Assembly: GCA_017417585.1 (NCBI GenBank)
Contig: JAFPYX010000036.1
Span: forward strand, 10,948 to 74,947
From: Victivallales bacterium
Lineage (GTDB): Bacteria; Verrucomicrobiota; Lentisphaeria; Oligosphaerales; Oligosphaeraceae
Length of the DNA: 64,000 nt
Reading direction: 5' to 3'
In this document: positions 51,299 to 59,605 of the stretch, piece after piece
Layout of the letters: each line of letters begins with the position of its first letter
How positions within the stretch are numbered: position 1 is the first letter of the stretch
Made by a program: the position numbers and the translations under genes
The notes under the pieces: generated by a model
Databases searched by the model: none
Told to the model about the DNA's origin: nothing
Seen by the model: only the letters and a program-made list of their open reading frames with translations

Positions 51299-53008
51299 CT
51301 ACATCTCCAGGATTGCCGGGTCGGGGCAGCGGCCATTCATCACATAGGTGTGATACATCTCCAGTTCGGGGAGATATTCGGCCAGGAACTCCTCGGTCAG
51401 CGTCATCCGTTTGGGCTCGTCAATCGTCTCGGCCAGCAGCAGATATCCCAGGAAGGAGATGGTCGCGATCCGGACCACGGAGAAGGCCATCTGGTCAAAG
51501 AATCGCGTATCGTCGTGGACACTCTCCACCTTCTGGATTGCCTCCTCGACCTTTGCGCGTGCCTCTGCCAGCTTCGCCGCCAGCTCGGCAGCCCGTCCGG
51601 CGTATGGCATCGCCGCCAGCTCGTCAAGACGGCCATTCAGCGTGCGCTTTTTGACGCCGGCGATGGCGGCGACGACCTGGAGCTGGGTGGTTCCCTCGTA
51701 GATATTGGTGATACGCGCATCGCGGTAATAGCGCTCCGCCAGATGGTCGCGCATATAGCCCTTGCCGCCGTGGACCTGAATCCCTTCGTAGGCCACTCGG
51801 TTGCACATTTCGGTATTGAACGCCTTGGTCATCGGCGTGAGGACATCGGCGAGCTGTCCGTACTTGCGCACCATCGCATTGTCCTCGTCGTTGCCGATGC
51901 CGCGGCGGATGCGGTCTTCATGGGCGTCGCGCAAATCCACGATCCGGCTGGTCTCGTAGAGCAGCGTGCGCCCCGCCAGCACGGCCGTACGCATCTTGAC
52001 CAGCAGTGCATTCACCGCGCCGATCTGGTCGATGGACTTTCCAAACTGACGGCGGTTCGCGGCATATTCACGGGCTGCGCGATATGCCGCCTCGCCAATG
52101 CCGACCGCCTGGGAGGCAATCGCCAGCCGCGCGCCGTTCATCAAGCTCATCACGTAGCGGATGAGTCCCATCCGGCGGCTGCCGACCAATTCGGCGGGAA
52201 CACGTTCGAAGGTCAATTCGCACGTGGGTGATCCGTGGATTCCCAGCTTGTCCTCAATTCCGCTGATCTTGAGCTGCGGGCAGCTCTCCACCAAGAACAT
52301 CGAGAGTCCGCGCCCGTCACGAGTACCCTCTTCGCTGCGCGCCAGCACCAGCAGCGCCTTGGCGCGCCCATTGGTGATAAAACGTTTCTTGCCAGTGATG
52401 TACCACTTCCCTGTAGCGGGATCCTGCTCGGCCTTCGTGGTGACCGACTGGAGGTCGCTGCCGGCTTCCGGCTCGGTCAGCGCCATCGCGCCATCCACCT
52501 CGCCGCAGGCGAAGCGCGGGAGCATCCGGTCGCGCTGCTCGTCGTTGCCGAAGCGGTAGAGCGTCTCGGCAATCGACTGGAGTCCAATCAGGTTCTGCAA
52601 CGAGGCATCCGCCCGCGAAATCATCTCGGTCATCATCGAATAGATGGTGGTCGGCAGATTCAGCCCGCCGTAGCGGCGCGGCAGGGTGACGCCATCCAGA
52701 TGGTTGTCCTGCAGAATCTTGAGATTTTCCTGTGTGCCATAGGGGTATTCCACCTTCCCGTTGGCCAGATGGACGTTGTCGCGGTCTACTTGCGTGCCGC
52801 GCGGTGCGAACTCCTCGCCGGAGAGCCTTCCCACCAGGTCCAGTTTCGCGCGGCAATTCTCCTTCGCCTCCGCTAGTGAACCAGGAGCATCCGGGAAGGA
52901 CGCCTTCAGGGTGAAGTCATCCTCGCGCATGCGCAGGACACCCGTCAAATCAGCATGCTCGAAATGGTATTGGAGATCGGAGTTGTCGAGATAGAAATTC
53001 GCGTTCAT
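51299..53008 (-). CDS. Acyl-CoA dehydrogenase (long form with C-terminal extension)
   Basis: ALTEPEAGSD, the GKWYITGKKRFITNG pattern, QVHGGKGYMRD, RITNIYEGTTQLQ. Confidence 0.87.
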   Translation of the reverse strand: MNANFYLDNSDLQYHFEHADLTGVLRMREDDFTLKASFPDAPGSLAEAKENCRAKLDLVGRLSGEEFAPRGTQVDRDNVHLANGKVEYPYGTQENLKILQDNHLDGVTLPRRYGGLNLPTTIYSMMTEMISRADASLQNLIGLQSIAETLYRFGNDEQRDRMLPRFACGEVDGAMALTEPEAGSDLQSVTTKAEQDPATGKWYITGKKRFITNGRAKALLVLARSEEGTRDGRGLSMFLVESCPQLKISGIEDKLGIHGSPTCELTFERVPAELVGSRRMGLIRYVMSLMNGARLAIASQAVGIGEAAYRAAREYAANRRQFGKSIDQIGAVNALLVKMRTAVLAGRTLLYETSRIVDLRDAHEDRIRRGIGNDEDNAMVRKYGQLADVLTPMTKAFNTEMCNRVAYEGIQVHGGKGYMRDHLAERYYRDARITNIYEGTTQLQVVAAIAGVKKRTLNGRLDELAAMPYAGRAAELAAKLAEARAKVEEAIQKVESVHDDTRFFDQMAFSVVRIATISFLGYLLLAETIDEPKRMTLTEEFLAEYLPELEMYHTYVMNGRCPDPAILEM

Positions 53009-53109: not shown

Positions 53110-53571
53110 TTACTTGACGGGAGGCACTACGAGCACCGCACAGGAAGCGCGCGAGGCGACCCGTTCGGCGACATTCCCGAAGAAGAAATTCCTCAGCTTG
53201 GAATTATTGGCTCCTTGTCTGCCCAGGACGATGAGCGTCGCGTGGATCTCCTGGGCATATTCGAGGATCTTTTCGTAGTCGCGCCCAATCCGAAAAGCCG
53301 TCACGAAAGTCACCCCTTCGGGGATTCTAGGGCGGTATTCCTGGTCAACCCTTGCATCGATATCCTGTTTTGCCTTTGCGTCGACGTCGATGTCCGCCTG
53401 GTAGATATACGATTTCCAGAATTGGGAATCGGGTTCTGGGATGACATTGAGCAAATGCAACTGGGAATTTGGCCGCCGGGCGGCCGCATCCACCGCATAG
53501 TCAAAGGCCTTGGAGGCATTTTCGGAAAAGTCCGTGCAACAGAGGATGATGGTGTTTTCGTCTGGAGTCAT
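53110..53571 (-). CDS. Universal stress protein (UspA family)
   Basis: 153 aa. IILCCTDFSE, LIVLGRQG, and the C-terminal VAERVASRASCAVLVV pattern. Confidence 0.85.
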   Translation of the reverse strand: MTPDENTIILCCTDFSENASKAFDYAVDAAARRPNSQLHLLNVIPEPDSQFWKSYIYQADIDVDAKAKQDIDARVDQEYRPRIPEGVTFVTAFRIGRDYEKILEYAQEIHATLIVLGRQGANNSKLRNFFFGNVAERVASRASCAVLVVPPVK

Positions 53572-53576
53572 GGCAG

Positions 53577-54887
53577 TTATTTTCCCAGCATCAGGTTAGG
53601 CAGCCAAAGGGCGATTTGGGGGAAGACGGTCAGGATGGCGGCTCCGACAACCAGCACTCCGACAAACGGTATGCATCCTCGGAAGACCTTCTGGAGAGGC
53701 ACATCGCGCATCATCCCAGAGACCACATAAGCATTCAGACCGACCGGCGGGGTCAGGACGCCAATCTGGACCACCGTGACCACCATCACCCCGAACCAGA
53801 TGGGGTCGTAGCCCAGTTTCAAGATTACCGGATAGAAGATCGGGATGGTCATCAGCACCATCGCCAATGCGTCAACCACCGTCCCCATGACCACGAAGAA
53901 AAGCAGGATGAACGCCAGAATGCACCATCCGGGCAAGGGCAGGCCGGTGAGCGTTCCGGCAATGCCGTCCGGAATGCCGGTGACGGCCAGGAAGCGTCCG
54001 AAAATCATTGCCCCGGCGATGATGATCAGAATCATCACGCTGGTCCGCAACGTCTCCTGGATGGAACGGCAGAGGACCTTCCAGGTCAGGCGCTTCCGGA
54101 AAATGGCAATGGCCATGGCACCGGCGGCGCCGACCGCCGCGGCCTCCGTCGGGGTGAACCATCCCAAGAACATTCCGCCGATCACCAGCAGGAAAAGCAC
54201 CACAGTCTCGATGACTCCAAGCAGCGATTTCCAGCGCTGGAGCCAGCTCACCGGCGGGGCAGCCGGCCCCAGTTCCGGTCGCCGGGCACAGGTCCACAGG
54301 ATATATCCGGAAAAAAGCAACGCCAGGAAGATTCCCGGCACAATTCCCGCGATGAAAAGCCGTGCAGGGGACTGCTCCGTCATGATTCCGTAGGCGATGA
54401 AGACCACGCTGGGAGGAATCAGCATGCCCAATCCGCCACCGGCGGCCACGGCCCCTGCCCCCAATCCCATGGAATATTTCCTCTCACGCATTTCAGGCAA
54501 GGCGACTGCCGCAATCGTGGCGGTGGTCGCCGGTCCGGAACCGCAGATTGCGCCAAACGCGGCAGATGCGCCAATGGTCGCGATATTCAGTCCGCCAGGA
54601 AGAAACCCCAACCAGTCGTAGGCGGCCTGGAAAAGACGCTTCGAGATTCCAGAGTGATAGGCCAGCTGCCCCATCAGGACAAACAAAGGGATGACGGTGT
54701 AGTCATATTTGCCAAATGTGTCAAAGGTGCTGGTGACCATCAAGTGGTAGGCCGCCTGGGGATTGTGCATGACCGCCAGGAATCCCACGCAACCGACAAT
54801 GGCCAAGGTAAAACCGACAGGCTGGCTGATGAAAAGCAACGCCAGCAGGAAAAAGCACCCGATGATGCCGACAGCGACAGGAGACAT
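53577..54887 (-). CDS. dctM: TRAP transporter large permease
   Basis: 436 aa, about 12 transmembrane segments. Typical DctM segments: IPLFVLMGQL, GSGPATTATI, IPPSVVFIAYG, LNAYVVSG. Confidence 0.9.
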   Translation of the reverse strand: MSPVAVGIIGCFFLLALLFISQPVGFTLAIVGCVGFLAVMHNPQAAYHLMVTSTFDTFGKYDYTVIPLFVLMGQLAYHSGISKRLFQAAYDWLGFLPGGLNIATIGASAAFGAICGSGPATTATIAAVALPEMRERKYSMGLGAGAVAAGGGLGMLIPPSVVFIAYGIMTEQSPARLFIAGIVPGIFLALLFSGYILWTCARRPELGPAAPPVSWLQRWKSLLGVIETVVLFLLVIGGMFLGWFTPTEAAAVGAAGAMAIAIFRKRLTWKVLCRSIQETLRTSVMILIIIAGAMIFGRFLAVTGIPDGIAGTLTGLPLPGWCILAFILLFFVVMGTVVDALAMVLMTIPIFYPVILKLGYDPIWFGVMVVTVVQIGVLTPPVGLNAYVVSGMMRDVPLQKVFRGCIPFVGVLVVGAAILTVFPQIALWLPNLMLGK

Positions 54888-54951: not shown

Positions 54952-57549
54952 TTAGGGACGAATCATCTCTTTTCCTGGATGCGTGAGATTGTAGACCACG
55001 ACCAGGATGCACAGGCAGAATGAAAGGCCCATGGCATAAAGCACCCAGAAGATCGGAACATTGAGCGAAAGCCCGACCGCATGGGTTTCGAAGAGTCTCT
55101 TTCCATGCTGAAAACAGCTCCAGGAAAGATACATGAAAAGCGAAATCACCAGCAGTCGATTGATCGTGTCCCAGAAGATGCGTGCCTTCTTTGGGAAGCG
55201 CTGGAAAAAGAACTCCACCGCGATGTGTCCCTTGACCGCTGTAACATACGGCATGGCGGCGGAGGTACACAGGCAGGCCAGAAGCTGAACGACATCCACG
55301 GCACCCTGAATCGGCCTGCCGATCTGGCGTCCAATGATATCCGCAAGAGTCAACGCCAGAAAAGCCATCATCGACACTCCGGAAAGCGCGGCAAGCACCA
55401 CACAGAGGAAAGCCGTGATTCTCCGGTAGCCTTCCCAAAAACGTTTTTGCGCATTCCCACCATAGATTGTAAAAAGCCCGGCCACCACCACAAGAGCAAG
55501 CAATGACACCAGTGCTGAGATGTGGTAAGGGTTCTCCATTGTCCCTTGCTCATCAAGCTCCGGCTGCAATTCTGGCAACTGGACCTCTTCTTCCTTCGCG
55601 ACTTGCTCTTTCAGGAATTCGAGCGCCTTTTTGCCCGGCAGTCCACGTTCCTCCACATTTTTGACCCATTCATCCAGCATCGGCTCGATTCGCCGTCGAG
55701 CGAGCGCATCCTCTTCCGGGGACAACGTTTTGACGGATTTGCCGAGTTGAAGAACAAACTCCTCCCCGGCGGCATCCGCCTCGTCCCAGGCCTTTCCATG
55801 CTTCGGAATCCACTCGTCATTGACCTGCATGATAATCTGCCGGATATCCTGGGGCATCTTTCGCCATGTATCCTGATTCATCACCACAAACATCGCGGTA
55901 GTGTAGCCGGCCGACGGGATTTTAACCACGGAATCGATCACCTCTCCCTGCCGCCATCCTTTCAGCGTCTCAATCGGGCAAAGCGTCCCCTCGACCACGC
56001 CTTTGCGAAGCGCCTCGTAGGTATCCGGCTGCCCCATTCCGATGGCATTGCCCTCCAATGCGCGAATCACCAGCGCCGAGACGCCAGTTCCACGGATGGA
56101 TTTCCCCTTGAGTTCGGAGATTTTCTCGGGATGCCCTTTGGCAGCCAGAACGCCAGGCCCGTGTGCATGAATGTACATCACCTTCACATCCTTGAGTTCC
56201 TCTGGCAGAAATGTCCGAAAGTAGGCATTGGCAATCCGGGTGGCCTGCTGTCCATCACGATATCCCAGTGGCAGGTCGAGCCCCTCCATCAAGGGGAACA
56301 TCCCGCGAGAATAGGAAAAGCAGCTCATCCCCAAGTCCGTGACACCCTGCACGACACACTCGTAATTCTCACCTGCAGCGGAAAGCACGCATCCGGGATA
56401 GACGTCGATCTTCACCCTCCCTCCGGTGCGTTCATAGACTTCATTGGCCCATTCGACCGCCAGCTGACTGTGAACATGCGTCGCAGGGAAGAAGACGCTG
56501 TAGGTCAGGTGGAACTCCGGCTCGACCAACTCTGGCAACGAATTGTCGACGTTCGTCTTAGCGACTTGCTCTTTCAGGAATTCCAACGCCTGCTTTCCCG
56601 GCAGTCCGCGCTCTTCCGCATTCCTTGCCCATTCCTCCAGCACCGGTTCGATTTTCTCCCTGGCGAGTGCATCTTCTTCCGGGGCCAGCGTCTCCACGGT
56701 CTTTCCCAAGGAGAGCACAAAGCTTTCGCCTTCGGCATCCGCCGCATCCCAGGCACGACCATGTTTTGGAATCCACTCGTCGTTGATCTGACGGATGACC
56801 TGCTGAATTTCCGGCGGCAGCTTTCTCCAGGCGTCCTTGTTCATCACCACGAACATCGCCGTTGTATAGCCGGCCGAGGGGATTTTCACCACGGAATCGA
56901 TCACCTCGCCCTGACGCCATCCCTTCAGCGTCTCAATCGGGCAGAGCGTCCCCTCGACCACCCCCTTGCGCAATGCCTCGTAGGTATCCGGCTGCCCCAT
57001 GCCGATGGCATTGCCCTCCAATGCGCGAATCACCAGTGCGGAGACTCCAGTGCCCCGAATGGATTTCCCGTGAAGCTCCTTGACCTGGACGACCCGCCCC
57101 TTGACCGCCAATATGCCAGGCCCGTGCGCGTGAATATACATCACCTGTACATCGTCCAATTCCTTGGGATGAAATTTCCGGAAGTATGCGTTGGCAATAC
57201 GGGTGGCCTGCTGTCCATCACGGTACCCCAGCGGCAAGTCGAGCCCCTCCATCATGGGGAACATCCCGCGAGAATACGAGAAGCAACTCATGCCCAGATC
57301 CGTGACGCCCTGGACGACGCATTCATAATTCTCGCCTGCGGAAGAGAGCACGCACCCCGGGGAGACGTCAATCTTCACGCGGCCATTGGTGCGTCTATAG
57401 ACCTCGTTGGCCCACTCGACCGCCAGTTGGCTATGCACATGCGTCGCCGGGAAAAACACACTGTAGGTCAGGCGGAATTCTGGAGATTCACCCCATGCCA
57501 GGGTCGTCCAGCACGCCAAAAGCAGAATTATCGGAAAGAGTTTCTTCAT
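54952..57549 (-). CDS. Fusion protein: signal peptide + two tandem DctP-type TRAP solute-binding domains + linker transmembrane segment + DctQ-type small permease
   Basis: Single open frame (ORF 54952..57639). The likely start is the ATG at 57549, giving MKKLFPIILLLACWTTLAWG. Two 321-aa units both start PEF[RH]LTYSVFFPATHVHSQLAVEWANEVY. After them come ISALVSLLALVVVAGLFTIY and a 4-TM DctQ-like part containing KGHIAVEFFFQRFP. Confidence 0.8.
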   Translation of the reverse strand: MKKLFPIILLLACWTTLAWGESPEFRLTYSVFFPATHVHSQLAVEWANEVYRRTNGRVKIDVSPGCVLSSAGENYECVVQGVTDLGMSCFSYSRGMFPMMEGLDLPLGYRDGQQATRIANAYFRKFHPKELDDVQVMYIHAHGPGILAVKGRVVQVKELHGKSIRGTGVSALVIRALEGNAIGMGQPDTYEALRKGVVEGTLCPIETLKGWRQGEVIDSVVKIPSAGYTTAMFVVMNKDAWRKLPPEIQQVIRQINDEWIPKHGRAWDAADAEGESFVLSLGKTVETLAPEEDALAREKIEPVLEEWARNAEERGLPGKQALEFLKEQVAKTNVDNSLPELVEPEFHLTYSVFFPATHVHSQLAVEWANEVYERTGGRVKIDVYPGCVLSAAGENYECVVQGVTDLGMSCFSYSRGMFPLMEGLDLPLGYRDGQQATRIANAYFRTFLPEELKDVKVMYIHAHGPGVLAAKGHPEKISELKGKSIRGTGVSALVIRALEGNAIGMGQPDTYEALRKGVVEGTLCPIETLKGWRQGEVIDSVVKIPSAGYTTAMFVVMNQDTWRKMPQDIRQIIMQVNDEWIPKHGKAWDEADAAGEEFVLQLGKSVKTLSPEEDALARRRIEPMLDEWVKNVEERGLPGKKALEFLKEQVAKEEEVQLPELQPELDEQGTMENPYHISALVSLLALVVVAGLFTIYGGNAQKRFWEGYRRITAFLCVVLAALSGVSMMAFLALTLADIIGRQIGRPIQGAVDVVQLLACLCTSAAMPYVTAVKGHIAVEFFFQRFPKKARIFWDTINRLLVISLFMYLSWSCFQHGKRLFETHAVGLSLNVPIFWVLYAMGLSFCLCILVVVYNLTHPGKEMIRP
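55558..57483 (-). repeat. Tandem in-frame duplication, 2 x 963 nt (diverged copies)
   Basis: For example, gcgacttgctctttcaggaattc occurs at 55598 and 56561, and ctgtaggtcagg at 56498 and 57461. The offset is exactly 963 nt. There are many scattered mismatches between the copies. Confidence 0.88.
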
Positions 57550-57580
57550 CGCATCACGATTCTTCAGCAGACAACAAGCC

Positions 57581-57586
57581 ATTATA
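57581..57586 (-). promoter_or_regulatory. Candidate -10 box (TATAAT) for the TRAP operon
   Basis: The minus strand reads ttgagTATAATggc about 32 nt upstream of the ATG at 57549. The -35 region is weak. Confidence 0.3.
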
Positions 57587-57733
57587 CTCAATATAATACA
57601 CCCCAAATTCCCAATAATTCCGCCAACTAATTTTTCCATGCAAATTTTGGCACAAGAGTTATTTTATGAGTCAAATCTTTGCTTTTCCATTTATGGCTCC
57701 ATGAATTCGCCCGCCATGTCTCTTCCGAAACCG

Positions 57734-59605
57734 ATGAAAAAAACGACCCCCTCACCCCTTTTCTGGCTCGCCTTGGTTCTCTGCTGTGTTTCCAGTGCGG
57801 CAGAGTCACTACTAGTCAATGGGGACTTTGAAATGGGGGACAAAGGCTGGAGCCTAAGCAAGCAAGCGGAAATCCGGTCGTTCTCAGGCTGCGACGGCAC
57901 TGCGGCGTTGTTGTTGCAGACTCACGCTTCTTCCATCCCAGAGCACACGGTCCAGCAATCCTTCCGCGGCGTTCCCGGTGACACCTATACGCTTGAACTC
58001 TGGTTGAAACTCGTGGAATTAAACCAAGGAGCCTTGCAGATCGACGTTTCGTTCTGGGACAAAAAGGATAAGCCGCTAAGCGGATATGAAAAATCATTGA
58101 CGGTGTCCTCGCCGAATCAGGTCTGGACTCCCCTAAACCTGGACTTCACCGTACCCCTTGAGGCATCCGTCTGCAGCCTTGCCATCTCTTTTACCAAAGA
58201 CGCGACTGGCACCGCGTGGATAGACAAAGTATCCATAACTCCTGCGGCACGGCCATTTTCACTGGCATTGATCCACCCCGTCCAAGGCATGCTGGACTGC
58301 AAGTACCCGCTTCTTCGCGTCGCCGTCTTCAAAGCCGGCCAGAGGAATCTCCAGGAGGCCTTGATCCAAAAAACACTCCGCTTATCCTGGAATGGACGCC
58401 AGGCTCTTCGTGCCGCCCAGCCAGTGGTGGAATTGAAACTCGAGCCGCCTCCGCCAGAAGGGCTGCTGAATCTTCGGGTCGAGTTGCTGGACAATGAAAG
58501 CCAGGCCGTCGATACCACTCTTCAGACGACTTTGCGCGTCCACTCCGGCGAAGACGACCGCGCGTGCCATATCGACTCGCGGCAGCGTGCCATTGTCGAT
58601 GGCCAGCCCTTTCTGCCGATTGGAATCGCCATTGGGAGGCCGACTCCCGATGCCATACCGCCGGCCGGCAACCTCCCTTTCAACTGTGTGCTGCTTGACG
58701 CTTCCTCGCTAGACGGCATCGCCTCTCTGGAAGAACTGTGCGCCGCACTGGATGCGTGGCGACAGCGCGGACTACGCGTGGTCTTTCCAGTGCCGGATGA
58801 TGGTGACCGCTGGTCGTGGTATACAACTCTTGGCCCCACGGAGGAAATGCGCAGGGAACGCCTTTTGCCAGAATTCGCCGGGCATCCGGCATTGCTGGCC
58901 TGGCAGCTTCATGCAACATCCCAGCCCGACGACGAAATTCACCGTCAACTCAACCGCATTGACGCAAACCATCCAGTCTGGCTGATGCTTAATGGCACCC
59001 GACTCATGCCAGAATTCCGCAGGGACGGCGATTTACTGGGAGCTGCGTTCGCGTTGCCAGCAACAACGGAGGAGGCTCCTGCCAGCCTTTCCCGGCTCTT
59101 GCGGACTTTGGAGGAGCTTGAAGAGACCAGGCTGGGCTTTTGGACATTGCTCGCTTTTCCTTCGGGCAATGGCAGTTCCTATGCCGATTCAATCCGTGCG
59201 GCCGTATTACTCATGGCAATGCGCGGAGCGAGAGGCATTTTCTTTGACCTCACCGGACACCAGCTGGACACCGCTGAATGGGGAACGATTTCAGAGGCGG
59301 CAACACTTCTACAGGACCTCTCACCCTACCTGCTTTCGAACATTCCGCCTCGTGAAATTCCGCTTCAGCAGAAGAAGGGAAGATCCACCGCCCGTGAATA
59401 TATGGACCATCACGGAAATCGGATTCTGCTACTGGCAGGCGGCTTTCAGGCCGGTAAGACCGAGGCGTTGTTCCAGTTGCCGGAAACCGCCGAACCGGTT
59501 TCACGGTTCGGCCACGTCCGAAGGGTTCGCAAAGGCACTTGGAGTTTCACCGGCAAAGGTATATGCTATGACCTGCTCCTGCTGCCCGCCGCCAAACGCC
59601 CGTAG
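57734..59605 (+). CDS. Secreted hypothetical protein with an N-terminal CBM4/9-like module (glycoside hydrolase-like, family unknown)
   Basis: ORF 57638..59605. The signal peptide begins at the ATG at 57734 (MKKTTPSPLFWLALVLCCVSSAAE), followed by the LLVNGDFEMGDKGWSL jelly-roll signature. Confidence 0.5.
   Translation: MKKTTPSPLFWLALVLCCVSSAAESLLVNGDFEMGDKGWSLSKQAEIRSFSGCDGTAALLLQTHASSIPEHTVQQSFRGVPGDTYTLELWLKLVELNQGALQIDVSFWDKKDKPLSGYEKSLTVSSPNQVWTPLNLDFTVPLEASVCSLAISFTKDATGTAWIDKVSITPAARPFSLALIHPVQGMLDCKYPLLRVAVFKAGQRNLQEALIQKTLRLSWNGRQALRAAQPVVELKLEPPPPEGLLNLRVELLDNESQAVDTTLQTTLRVHSGEDDRACHIDSRQRAIVDGQPFLPIGIAIGRPTPDAIPPAGNLPFNCVLLDASSLDGIASLEELCAALDAWRQRGLRVVFPVPDDGDRWSWYTTLGPTEEMRRERLLPEFAGHPALLAWQLHATSQPDDEIHRQLNRIDANHPVWLMLNGTRLMPEFRRDGDLLGAAFALPATTEEAPASLSRLLRTLEELEETRLGFWTLLAFPSGNGSSYADSIRAAVLLMAMRGARGIFFDLTGHQLDTAEWGTISEAATLLQDLSPYLLSNIPPREIPLQQKKGRSTAREYMDHHGNRILLLAGGFQAGKTEALFQLPETAEPVSRFGHVRRVRKGTWSFTGKGICYDLLLLPAAKRP

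Follow-up and report, generated by a model that had tools for sequence, protein, structure and literature searches.

On the minus strand of a contig from a rumen or gut Victivallales bacterium (Lentisphaerota; GCA_017417585.1, contig JAFPYX010000036.1), one gene encodes two tandem DctP-type substrate-binding domains, an added transmembrane helix and the small membrane subunit DctQ of a tripartite ATP-independent periplasmic (TRAP) transporter in a single 865-aa polypeptide. We analyzed this gene within a 64-kb stretch of the contig (64,000 nucleotides, hereafter the window), and we call its architecture P-P-Q, after the two binding domains (P) and DctQ (Q); the large transport subunit, DctM (M), is encoded by a separate gene. 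The hallmark of TRAP transporters is a binding protein that diffuses freely and operates an elevator consisting of a monomer. The best explanation of the present system as a whole, and one that we consider likely, is that two equivalent tethered DctP domains serve one Q-M elevator.

The reading frame at 54952..57549 (minus strand) starts MKKLF and runs through 865 codons with no internal stop. A first-pass annotation of this DNA, which did not give the strand, had described such an uninterrupted frame, together with a Sec-type signal peptide, two 321-aa DctP-like units exactly 963 nt apart, an acidic linker followed by a hydrophobic helix and a four-helix DctQ segment, and a dctM gene 64 nt after the stop; each of these features was borne out by our analysis (Table 1). 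It had also proposed searching the product with Pfam and aligning unit 1 with unit 2. Pfam DctP matches the protein in two stretches (E = 1.5e-66; best stretch 355–629), NCBIfam TRAP_S1 matches it twice (136 bits, cut-off 50), and Pfam DctQ matches it once, at residues 731–855 (E = 3.4e-17, covering positions 2–126 of a 132-position model). The repeat is direct, with a spacing of exactly 963 nt, and covers both DctP units. A full-length AlphaFold2 (AF2) model, built from a shallow alignment of 18 sequences, has a mean predicted local distance difference test score (pLDDT) of 81 and a predicted template-modeling score (pTM) of 0.48; it contains two well-folded binding domains, with linkers that are disordered at residues 334–343 and ~652–676. 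Judged by its sequence, the protein carries the features by which the TRAP class (TC 2.A.56) can be recognized, namely a DctP-family (PF03480) binding domain, a carboxylate-binding arginine in both units and, by the Pfam match and the AF2 helices, a four-helix DctQ. It departs from the class in having no binding protein on a chain of its own: one uninterrupted open reading frame (ORF) joins the two P domains to Q, and this is kept in the orthologs. The identical protein in NCBI, MBQ4480179.1, is named 'MAG: TRAP transporter substrate-binding protein DctP [Victivallales bacterium]', MAG standing for metagenome-assembled genome; it is encoded on a contig of 85 kb.

An in-frame ATG further upstream, at 57639, would add 30 residues and extend the product to 895 aa. 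We preferred the 865-aa form because six ortholog clusters have their MKK/MRK start at the same position. The upstream ATG (window 57550–57639, minus strand) is used by one ENA gene call, P0173, and adjoins the start (57638) of a divergent gene on the plus strand. The signal peptide has an A-W-G motif at which signal peptidase I would be expected to cleave, and AF2 models a helix at residues 4–18. Lipoprotein anchoring through Cys13, which lies in a 'lipobox-like' LLAC, was considered and rejected, as the context of this cysteine varies among orthologs.

DctQ consists of four helices and has a cytoplasmic C-terminus (PMC5812351). Its N-terminus is therefore cytoplasmic too, so that linking a periplasmic P domain to it takes extra helices in odd number. 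An extra helix had accordingly been proposed in the first-pass annotation as a topological requirement, and both the position of this helix, which we call TM0, and its conservation agree with that argument. Hydropathy locates TM0 at residues 677–695 (score 2.65), ahead of the DctQ helices, and AF2 agrees, with helices at 677–696 (TM0) and then at 698–742, 750–784, 787–821 and 834–856; in HiSiaQM, too, the Q helices are described as long and tilted (PMC9352664), and the DctQ helices here match them. TM0 connects the periplasmic domains to the cytoplasmic DctQ N-terminus. All 13 of the genuine fusions that we examined conserve TM0 and the loop behind it, and TM0 is kept in P0001–P0011 and P0023 with invariant G39, T42, G45, G46, Q49, W53 and Y56 (numbering of alignment A1). 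It is absent from standalone DctQ proteins of related Lentisphaerota. The loop after TM0 is basic (residues 697–711 in the window protein, where the DctQ helices run from 698 on) and holds two to five Lys/Arg residues across the 13 fusions and three to five in the P-P-Q clade. The linker before TM0 has zero or one Lys/Arg and five to seven acidic residues in the P-P-Q clade; in the window protein, the 23-residue stretch that was scored (654–676) contains no Lys/Arg and seven Asp/Glu. Such a pattern, an acidic linker and a basic loop, agrees with the positive-inside rule. AF2 gives the tether no secondary structure; its LPEL and NPYH motifs are conserved. LPEL is present in both the inter-unit and the membrane-proximal linker, and the duplicated segment is therefore the P domain together with the first 12 linker residues.

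We asked how widely this architecture is distributed. Among 5.8 billion protein clusters, the search returned six clusters (P0001–P0006) of 865–867 aa with the P-P-Q layout, 81–91% identical, and five clusters (P0007–P0011) of 543–555 aa in which a single P is fused to Q, 62–77% identical. P-P-Q is seen in seven clusters at 90% identity, P0001–P0006 being the six that were returned; the window protein belongs to the P0001 cluster. Independent contigs from NCBI, ENA and Logan carry P0004, all with the gene order P-P-Q, DctM and universal stress protein (Usp). The single-P fusions P0007 and P0010 lie in the same PQ-M-Usp operon, and the single P-Q relatives share TM0. Scanning one genome per GTDB species (185,579 species) with an alignment of tether, TM0 and Q as the query yielded 77 loci, two of which carry a fusion, both of them P-P-Q and both in MAGs of rumen Victivallales (water buffalo, sheep). 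The other 75 have a standalone DctQ in stop-to-stop frames of ~141–240 aa, and the nearest loci of Lentisphaerota have dctP and dctQ, both closely related, as separate neighboring genes. When 1.84 billion representatives were searched with a profile, tether and TM0 were covered by only three of the best 150 DctQ relatives: P0003 (866 aa), P0008 (545 aa) and P0023, a P-Q that is truncated at its 5' end and has a longer linker. The GTDB scan and the profile search both span relatives of this DctQ. Because other Lentisphaerota have separate dctP and dctQ genes, the fusion is derived. On these comparisons, the P-Q fusion is real and confined to a small clade, and the tandem form is a sub-clade of it.

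A single relative joins P to Q in another way. P0012 (L086:153-1850, GCA_029558215.1), a 565-aa protein with 42% identity on a singleton contig, has a lipoprotein-type P part joined to Q without TM0. At its junction (…CTTAAGGAGACAAATCCCAAGATG…), an out-of-frame TAA overlaps an AGGAG ribosome-binding site 9 nt before the dctQ Met. P0012 probably represents two genes merged by a 1-nt indel or a sequencing error, and as a functional fusion it is topologically implausible; the contrast with it underlines that the TM0-containing fusions are adapted.

Other relatives show further arrangements. Three standalone DctQ proteins (P0027, P0032 and P0041; 206–228 aa) carry an N-terminal extension with an extra hydrophobic segment, which in P0041 aligns with the TM0 region of the profile; these could be five-helix DctQ proteins and possible intermediates towards the fusion, or else truncated gene calls. 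P0022 (525 aa, from a truncated ENA contig) joins the C-terminal portion of DctM, through a linker and a hydrophobic helix, to a DctP domain of the same clade; it is an M-P fusion, as is the protein from A. intestini cited in PMC9352664. DctP domains of this clade are also fused to non-transporter modules (P0016/P0021, 884–885 aa; P0020; P0014/P0017/P0018), the partners being peptidase C14 (caspase-like) with CARDB, trypsin-like protease domains, and a ~190-aa C-terminal extension in Syntrophaceae. These fusions suggest that binding domains have been recruited for sensing or other roles.

We next consider the two binding units themselves. The 321-aa units are identical at 82.6% of amino acids and 78.4% of nucleotides, with 103 synonymous and 56 replacement codon differences; by the Nei-Gojobori method, their synonymous divergence (dS) is 0.98 and their nonsynonymous divergence (dN) 0.10, a dN/dS of 0.10. 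Units of only 78% identity do not confuse assemblers, and an assembly stutter can therefore be dismissed. Together with the presence of the architecture in seven clusters, these values uphold the first-pass view that the repeat is an old duplication. Across orthologs, identity among first units or among second units is 81–94%, and between the two units of one protein it is 82–89%. The dS between units within a genome is 0.98 for the window and 1.12 for the P0004 locus, whereas comparisons of the window with the P0004 locus give 1.38–1.45 for orthologous and 1.51–1.54 for non-orthologous units. Codons 151–200 of the unit (56884–57033 and 55921–56070, minus strand) have an inter-unit dS of only 0.34, compared with ~1.0–2.1 elsewhere. 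This low-dS stretch and the closer resemblance of units within a genome suggest gene-conversion tracts between the repeats. In a neighbor-joining tree of 20 units, bootstrap support for the monophyly of first or second units is only 25–35%, so that clades of first and second units are not resolved. The comparisons suggest one old duplication, older than the split of the two P-P-Q lineages, with some gene conversion since.

Both units are held under purifying selection, dN/dS being 0.07–0.10 throughout the units and 0.07–0.08 between species; in Q it is 0.04. Over seven P-P-Q proteins, units 1 and 2 have distinct fixed residues at just six of 309 columns (D/E39, S/Y41, S/A48, Q/K113, Q/R227 and S/G258), and all six differences are mild. 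Across all 19 units of the fused family, 140 of the 309 columns are invariant, including the blocks YSVFFPATHVH, GENYECV…DLGMSCFSYSRGMFP, IRGTG and GMGQPDTYEALRKGV…CPIETLKGW. Long blocks are identical between the two units, among them the strand that bears the ligand-binding arginine and unit positions 138–215.

This arginine, of the SiaP R147 type, acts as a carboxylate clamp and is found in about 97% of the family (PMC4646407). By BLASTP against Haemophilus influenzae SiaP, R147 aligns with R143 of the unit, which is R165 in P1 and R486 in P2; both units contain the motif KSIRGTG, and R486 is invariant in the 18-sequence alignment of homologs. The closest solved proteins by sequence are 4NAP/4PGN (E = 2e-39), 4N6D, 4P56, TarP (7NRR/7NSW/7NR2) and 5I5P, and Foldseek searches with the AF2 model returned the same set of structures with target-normalized TM-scores of 0.83–0.91. 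Ligands named in the titles of the matched entries are coumarate, ferulate, caffeate, cinnamate and 4-hydroxyphenylacetate, and one title reads 'specific for aromatic acid ligands'. The nearest neighbors in fold and in sequence are thus aromatic-acid binders, as would be seen for a TarP-like protein. The TarP-type proteins (7NSW, 7NR2, 7NQG, 5I5P, 4NAP; E = 2e-39 to 1e-22) differ in that all are free in the periplasm, and the likeness is one of overall sequence and fold, at an identity of only 21–28%. By this analogy, the substrate is probably an aromatic carboxylate, such as a hydroxycinnamate or an arylacetate, which we offer as a lead and not as a finding.

In the mechanism that we propose, the Sec signal would be cleaved and two tandem, nearly equivalent DctP domains would be exported, not released into the periplasm. 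An acidic, disordered linker of ~23–24 residues and TM0 would tether both domains to the N-terminus of DctQ, which would assemble with the separately encoded DctM. Each domain would bind the same carboxylate through its conserved arginine (R165 or R486), close on it, dock singly and in turn on the Q-M elevator, and trigger ion-coupled uptake. The fusion itself would hold binding domain and translocator at a fixed ratio of 1:1 and give a very high local concentration; a later in-frame duplication of the P domain and 12 linker residues would have raised the ratio to 2:1 and increased the rate of capture, presumably the selected effect, and would have added no second specificity. The downstream Usp would probably modulate activity, by analogy with TeaD for TeaABC. 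The parts of this picture that we infer are an intact polypeptide, docking by both domains, which substrate is bound, the coupling to ions and what Usp does. An AF2 model of P1 and P2 has a pLDDT of 88 and a pTM of 0.55, with the linker below 50 in pLDDT (model residues 315–321); given the low pTM values (0.48–0.55) and the disordered linkers, no fixed packing of one domain against the other is predicted.

Several points weigh against this picture. It presumes that the polypeptide stays intact and that the distal domain, too, docks. The host is a diderm, in which tethering is not needed to retain a binding protein, and any selective advantage of the tether is conjecture. The start codon is taken from the orthologs, no clear Shine-Dalgarno sequence being seen ahead of the P-P-Q gene. 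The substrate guess is weak, as identity to the ligand-bound structures is only 21–28%, and gene context is no help with it: the adjoining acyl-CoA dehydrogenase gene is not conserved in the orthologous loci L001–L004. Finally, the assignment of one specificity to both domains follows from their equivalence in sequence, and one pocket change among the 56 replacements could alter affinity.

Other explanations of the tandem arrangement were weighed against the same evidence. The first-pass annotation had raised the possibility that the replacement differences give the transporter two specificities or affinities. P1 and P2 would then have diverged as substrate-binding domains 1 and 2 (SBD1/SBD2) have in GlnPQ, an ATP-binding cassette (ABC) importer whose tandem domains have distinct specificities (PMC8025302), and the 56 replacement codon differences in the window genome could be read in this light. 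However, the six differences that are fixed over the seven orthologs are all conservative, the arginine is kept in both units, and the identical blocks take in the arginine strand; a within-genome dS below the ortholog dS suggests some homogenization, not divergence. The idea found no support in these comparisons, and we consider it improbable. Equally improbable, in our judgment, is an obligate pseudo-dimer, a covalent version of the helix-swapped TakP-like dimer in which the proximal domain alone docks and the distal domain captures substrate and hands it over, or acts cooperatively. TRAP binding proteins that form dimers are known, and for TakP a hand-over model has been proposed (PMC1839085). 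Yet each unit here is 309 aa, the normal length of a DctP, and ends in ordinary C-terminal helices (H290–313, H318–330) followed by a disordered linker, and no long extra helix of the TakP type is apparent in the model. The P1-P2 pTM of 0.55, reached despite a domain pLDDT of ~88 and with the linker below 50, points the same way, as weak evidence given the shallow alignment of 18 sequences.

A slightly less probable account takes the fusion as a polyprotein that ensures co-translation and co-export, with periplasmic proteases cutting the linkers and freeing the binding proteins. Both linkers are predicted to be exposed and disordered, as this would call for, but the conserved TM0 and loop would be needless if the chain were cut, a separate dctQ would do, as it does in related genomes, and no internal hydrophobic segment of the signal-peptidase type lies ahead of unit 2. 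That the gene is an artifact or pseudogene, whether because stop codons were lost, the repeat was mis-assembled or the operon is decaying, is to us barely credible. P0012 does look accidental, lacking TM0 and retaining a TAAGGAG ribosome-binding site and the dctQ Met. The window gene, in contrast, has a conserved 55-aa segment of tether, TM0 and loop and no retained dctQ start, the identical architecture occurs in seven clusters from many independent rumen or gut assemblies, and dN/dS is ~0.1 in both units and 0.04 in Q; an artifact is effectively refuted already. Two equivalent tethered domains serving one Q-M elevator remain our preferred explanation.

How does this system compare with those already known? 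With canonical TRAP transporters (TC 2.A.56; DctPQM, SiaPQM, TarPQM) it shares the DctP fold, the conserved arginine, a four-helix DctQ, a DctM elevator and a single operon in the order P, Q, M. It differs in that the binding protein, free in those systems, is here a tandem pair that an added helix links covalently to DctQ, making the system bipartite as PPQ + M instead of P + Q + M or P + QM. In Q-M fusions (HiSiaQM, TAXI), an extra transmembrane helix resolves a topological mismatch at the junction (PMC5812351, PMC9352664). P-P-Q likewise has one extra helix at its fusion junction; whereas the helix of Q-M fusions joins the Q C-terminus to the M N-terminus, that of P-P-Q joins the P C-terminus to the Q N-terminus and leaves M separate.

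The first-pass annotation had treated the fusion as novel, which holds for the tandem form and not for the tethering of a binding domain to a membrane subunit as such. The existence of P-Q fusions is stated in one line of a review (PMC8276074), and M-P fusions are known as rare, with an example in Acidaminococcus intestini (G4Q5D7; PMC9352664). P0007–P0011 are exactly such P-Q fusions. In the literature searched, we found no characterized P-Q or M-P TRAP fusion and nothing relevant on tandem P-P-Q, GlnPQ-like TRAP or Victivallales TRAP systems. The tandem P-P-Q is new, and its parent, the P-Q fused TRAP, has been mentioned before and is rare and uncharacterized.

The nearest likeness lies outside the TRAP class, among ABC importers with fused binding domains (GlnPQ and others of the PAAT or OTCN type). 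GlnPQ also has two tandem binding domains N-terminal to its membrane domain, joined by short flexible linkers of 14 and 19 aa (here 12 and ~23–24 aa), and both of its tethered domains deliver substrate, largely independently (PMC8025302). In each system, competition between the domains for a single docking site is to be expected. GlnPQ nevertheless belongs to an unrelated transporter class, uses an unrelated binding-protein family, and works as a homodimer, so that it has four binding domains, of distinct specificities; the window system would be a monomeric elevator with two nearly identical domains. P-P-Q has the tandem domains and short linkers of the GlnPQ type and lacks the ABC transmembrane and nucleotide-binding domains: no ABC components lie next to the P-P-Q gene, where the membrane parts are DctQ and DctM. 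The relation to GlnPQ is one of analogy, not membership.

It is about as likely as not that P-P-Q is the first recognized secondary-active transporter with two tandem binding domains tethered covalently to its membrane component. If so, it would parallel GlnPQ-type ABC importers by convergence, as a TRAP system in which a fixed 2:1 complement of tethered domains alternating on one elevator replaces the usual excess of free binding protein. Docking and stoichiometry of TRAP transporters have been studied mainly through models and engineered cross-links. The tethered P-Q and P-P-Q proteins would indicate that the binding-protein 'operator' works, or has evolved to work, at fixed ratios of 1:1 and 2:1 in a diderm. 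For structural work, a natural single-chain P-Q could be a means of capturing the elusive tripartite P-Q-M complex, its built-in covalent link being useful for cryo-electron microscopy of the docked complex. With P-P-Q, one can ask directly, in a transporter other than an ABC importer, whether tethered tandem domains act in competition, in cooperation or just by doubling the rate of capture. In ecological terms, the system suggests that rumen Victivallales scavenge an organic acid, probably an aromatic one, with high affinity. The finding leaves the known mechanism of TRAP transport unchanged, and its appeal is to specialists in TRAP transporters and binding proteins and to structural work.

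Table 1. Features of the P-P-Q gene, its product and the adjoining operon genes (window coordinates).
Feature	Residues	Coordinates	Strand	Basis
Sec-type signal peptide, MKKLFPIILLLACWTTLAWG, A-W-G cleavage motif	1–20	57490..57549	-	Read from sequence; AF2 helix 4–18
DctP unit 1 (P1), distal binding domain, Arg R165	23–331	56557..57483	-	Pfam, NCBIfam; AF2 pLDDT ~80–90
Inter-unit linker, TNVDNSLPELVE	332–343	56521..56556	-	Unit alignment; AF2 pLDDT <50 at 334–343
DctP unit 2 (P2), membrane-proximal binding domain, Arg R486	344–652	55594..56520	-	Pfam; AF2 pLDDT ~90
Acidic, Pro-containing tether, EEEVQLPELQPELDEQGTMENPYH, predicted periplasmic and disordered	653–676	55522..55593	-	AF2 pLDDT ~55
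Added transmembrane helix TM0, outside to inside	677–696	55462..55521	-	Hydropathy, AF2, conservation
DctQ small membrane subunit, four long helices	697–865 + stop codon	54952..55461	-	Pfam, AF2
dctM, separate gene for the large transport subunit (436 aa), starting 64 nt past the P-P-Q stop		53577..54887	-	Pfam, TIGR00786
Universal stress protein gene (Usp), 5 nt after dctM		53110..53571	-	Pfam Usp, E = 5.5e-27

The product of dctM matches Pfam DctM over the whole model but its first two positions (E = 1.6e-94, 3–413 of 413) and scores 328 bits against TIGR00786 (cut-off 268), as a TRAP DctM subunit should. A dctM gene adjoins the fusion gene in every P-Q and P-P-Q locus examined. Usp follows dctM directly in L001–L004, L082, L083, L084 and L086, and locus L085 ends inside the gene after the fusion; Usp forms a conserved third gene of the operon and probably encodes a regulator. 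An association of USPs with TRAP transporters (TeaD) has been noted before, its mechanism being unknown (PMC11574862). TeaABC-TeaD has the USP gene directly downstream of the TRAP membrane genes, as here, and differs in being an ectoine transporter with a free binding protein. Within the 64-kb window, we found no further DctP-like ORFs, no tRNA genes and no Rfam matches, and promoter and terminator scans stayed at chance level.

Directly downstream of Usp, on the same strand, lies a gene for a 569-aa acyl-CoA dehydrogenase (51299–53008, minus strand). It is missing from L001–L004, with MarC and FolB in its place in L001 and L004, and probably stands outside the transporter operon. A 702-aa reading frame (55522–57630, plus strand) runs antisense along the entire P-P-Q gene, which is rich in G+C at third codon positions (GC3 ~0.7); in all likelihood the frame is a shadow ORF and not a real gene. 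The divergent gene upstream (57638–59605, plus strand) encodes a secreted protein of 655 aa with a weak CBM_4_9 match (E = 1.7e-4). In L001–L004, a 625-aa ORF with no Pfam match occupies the same divergent position, and it adjoins P-P-Q genes only, not single P-Q genes.

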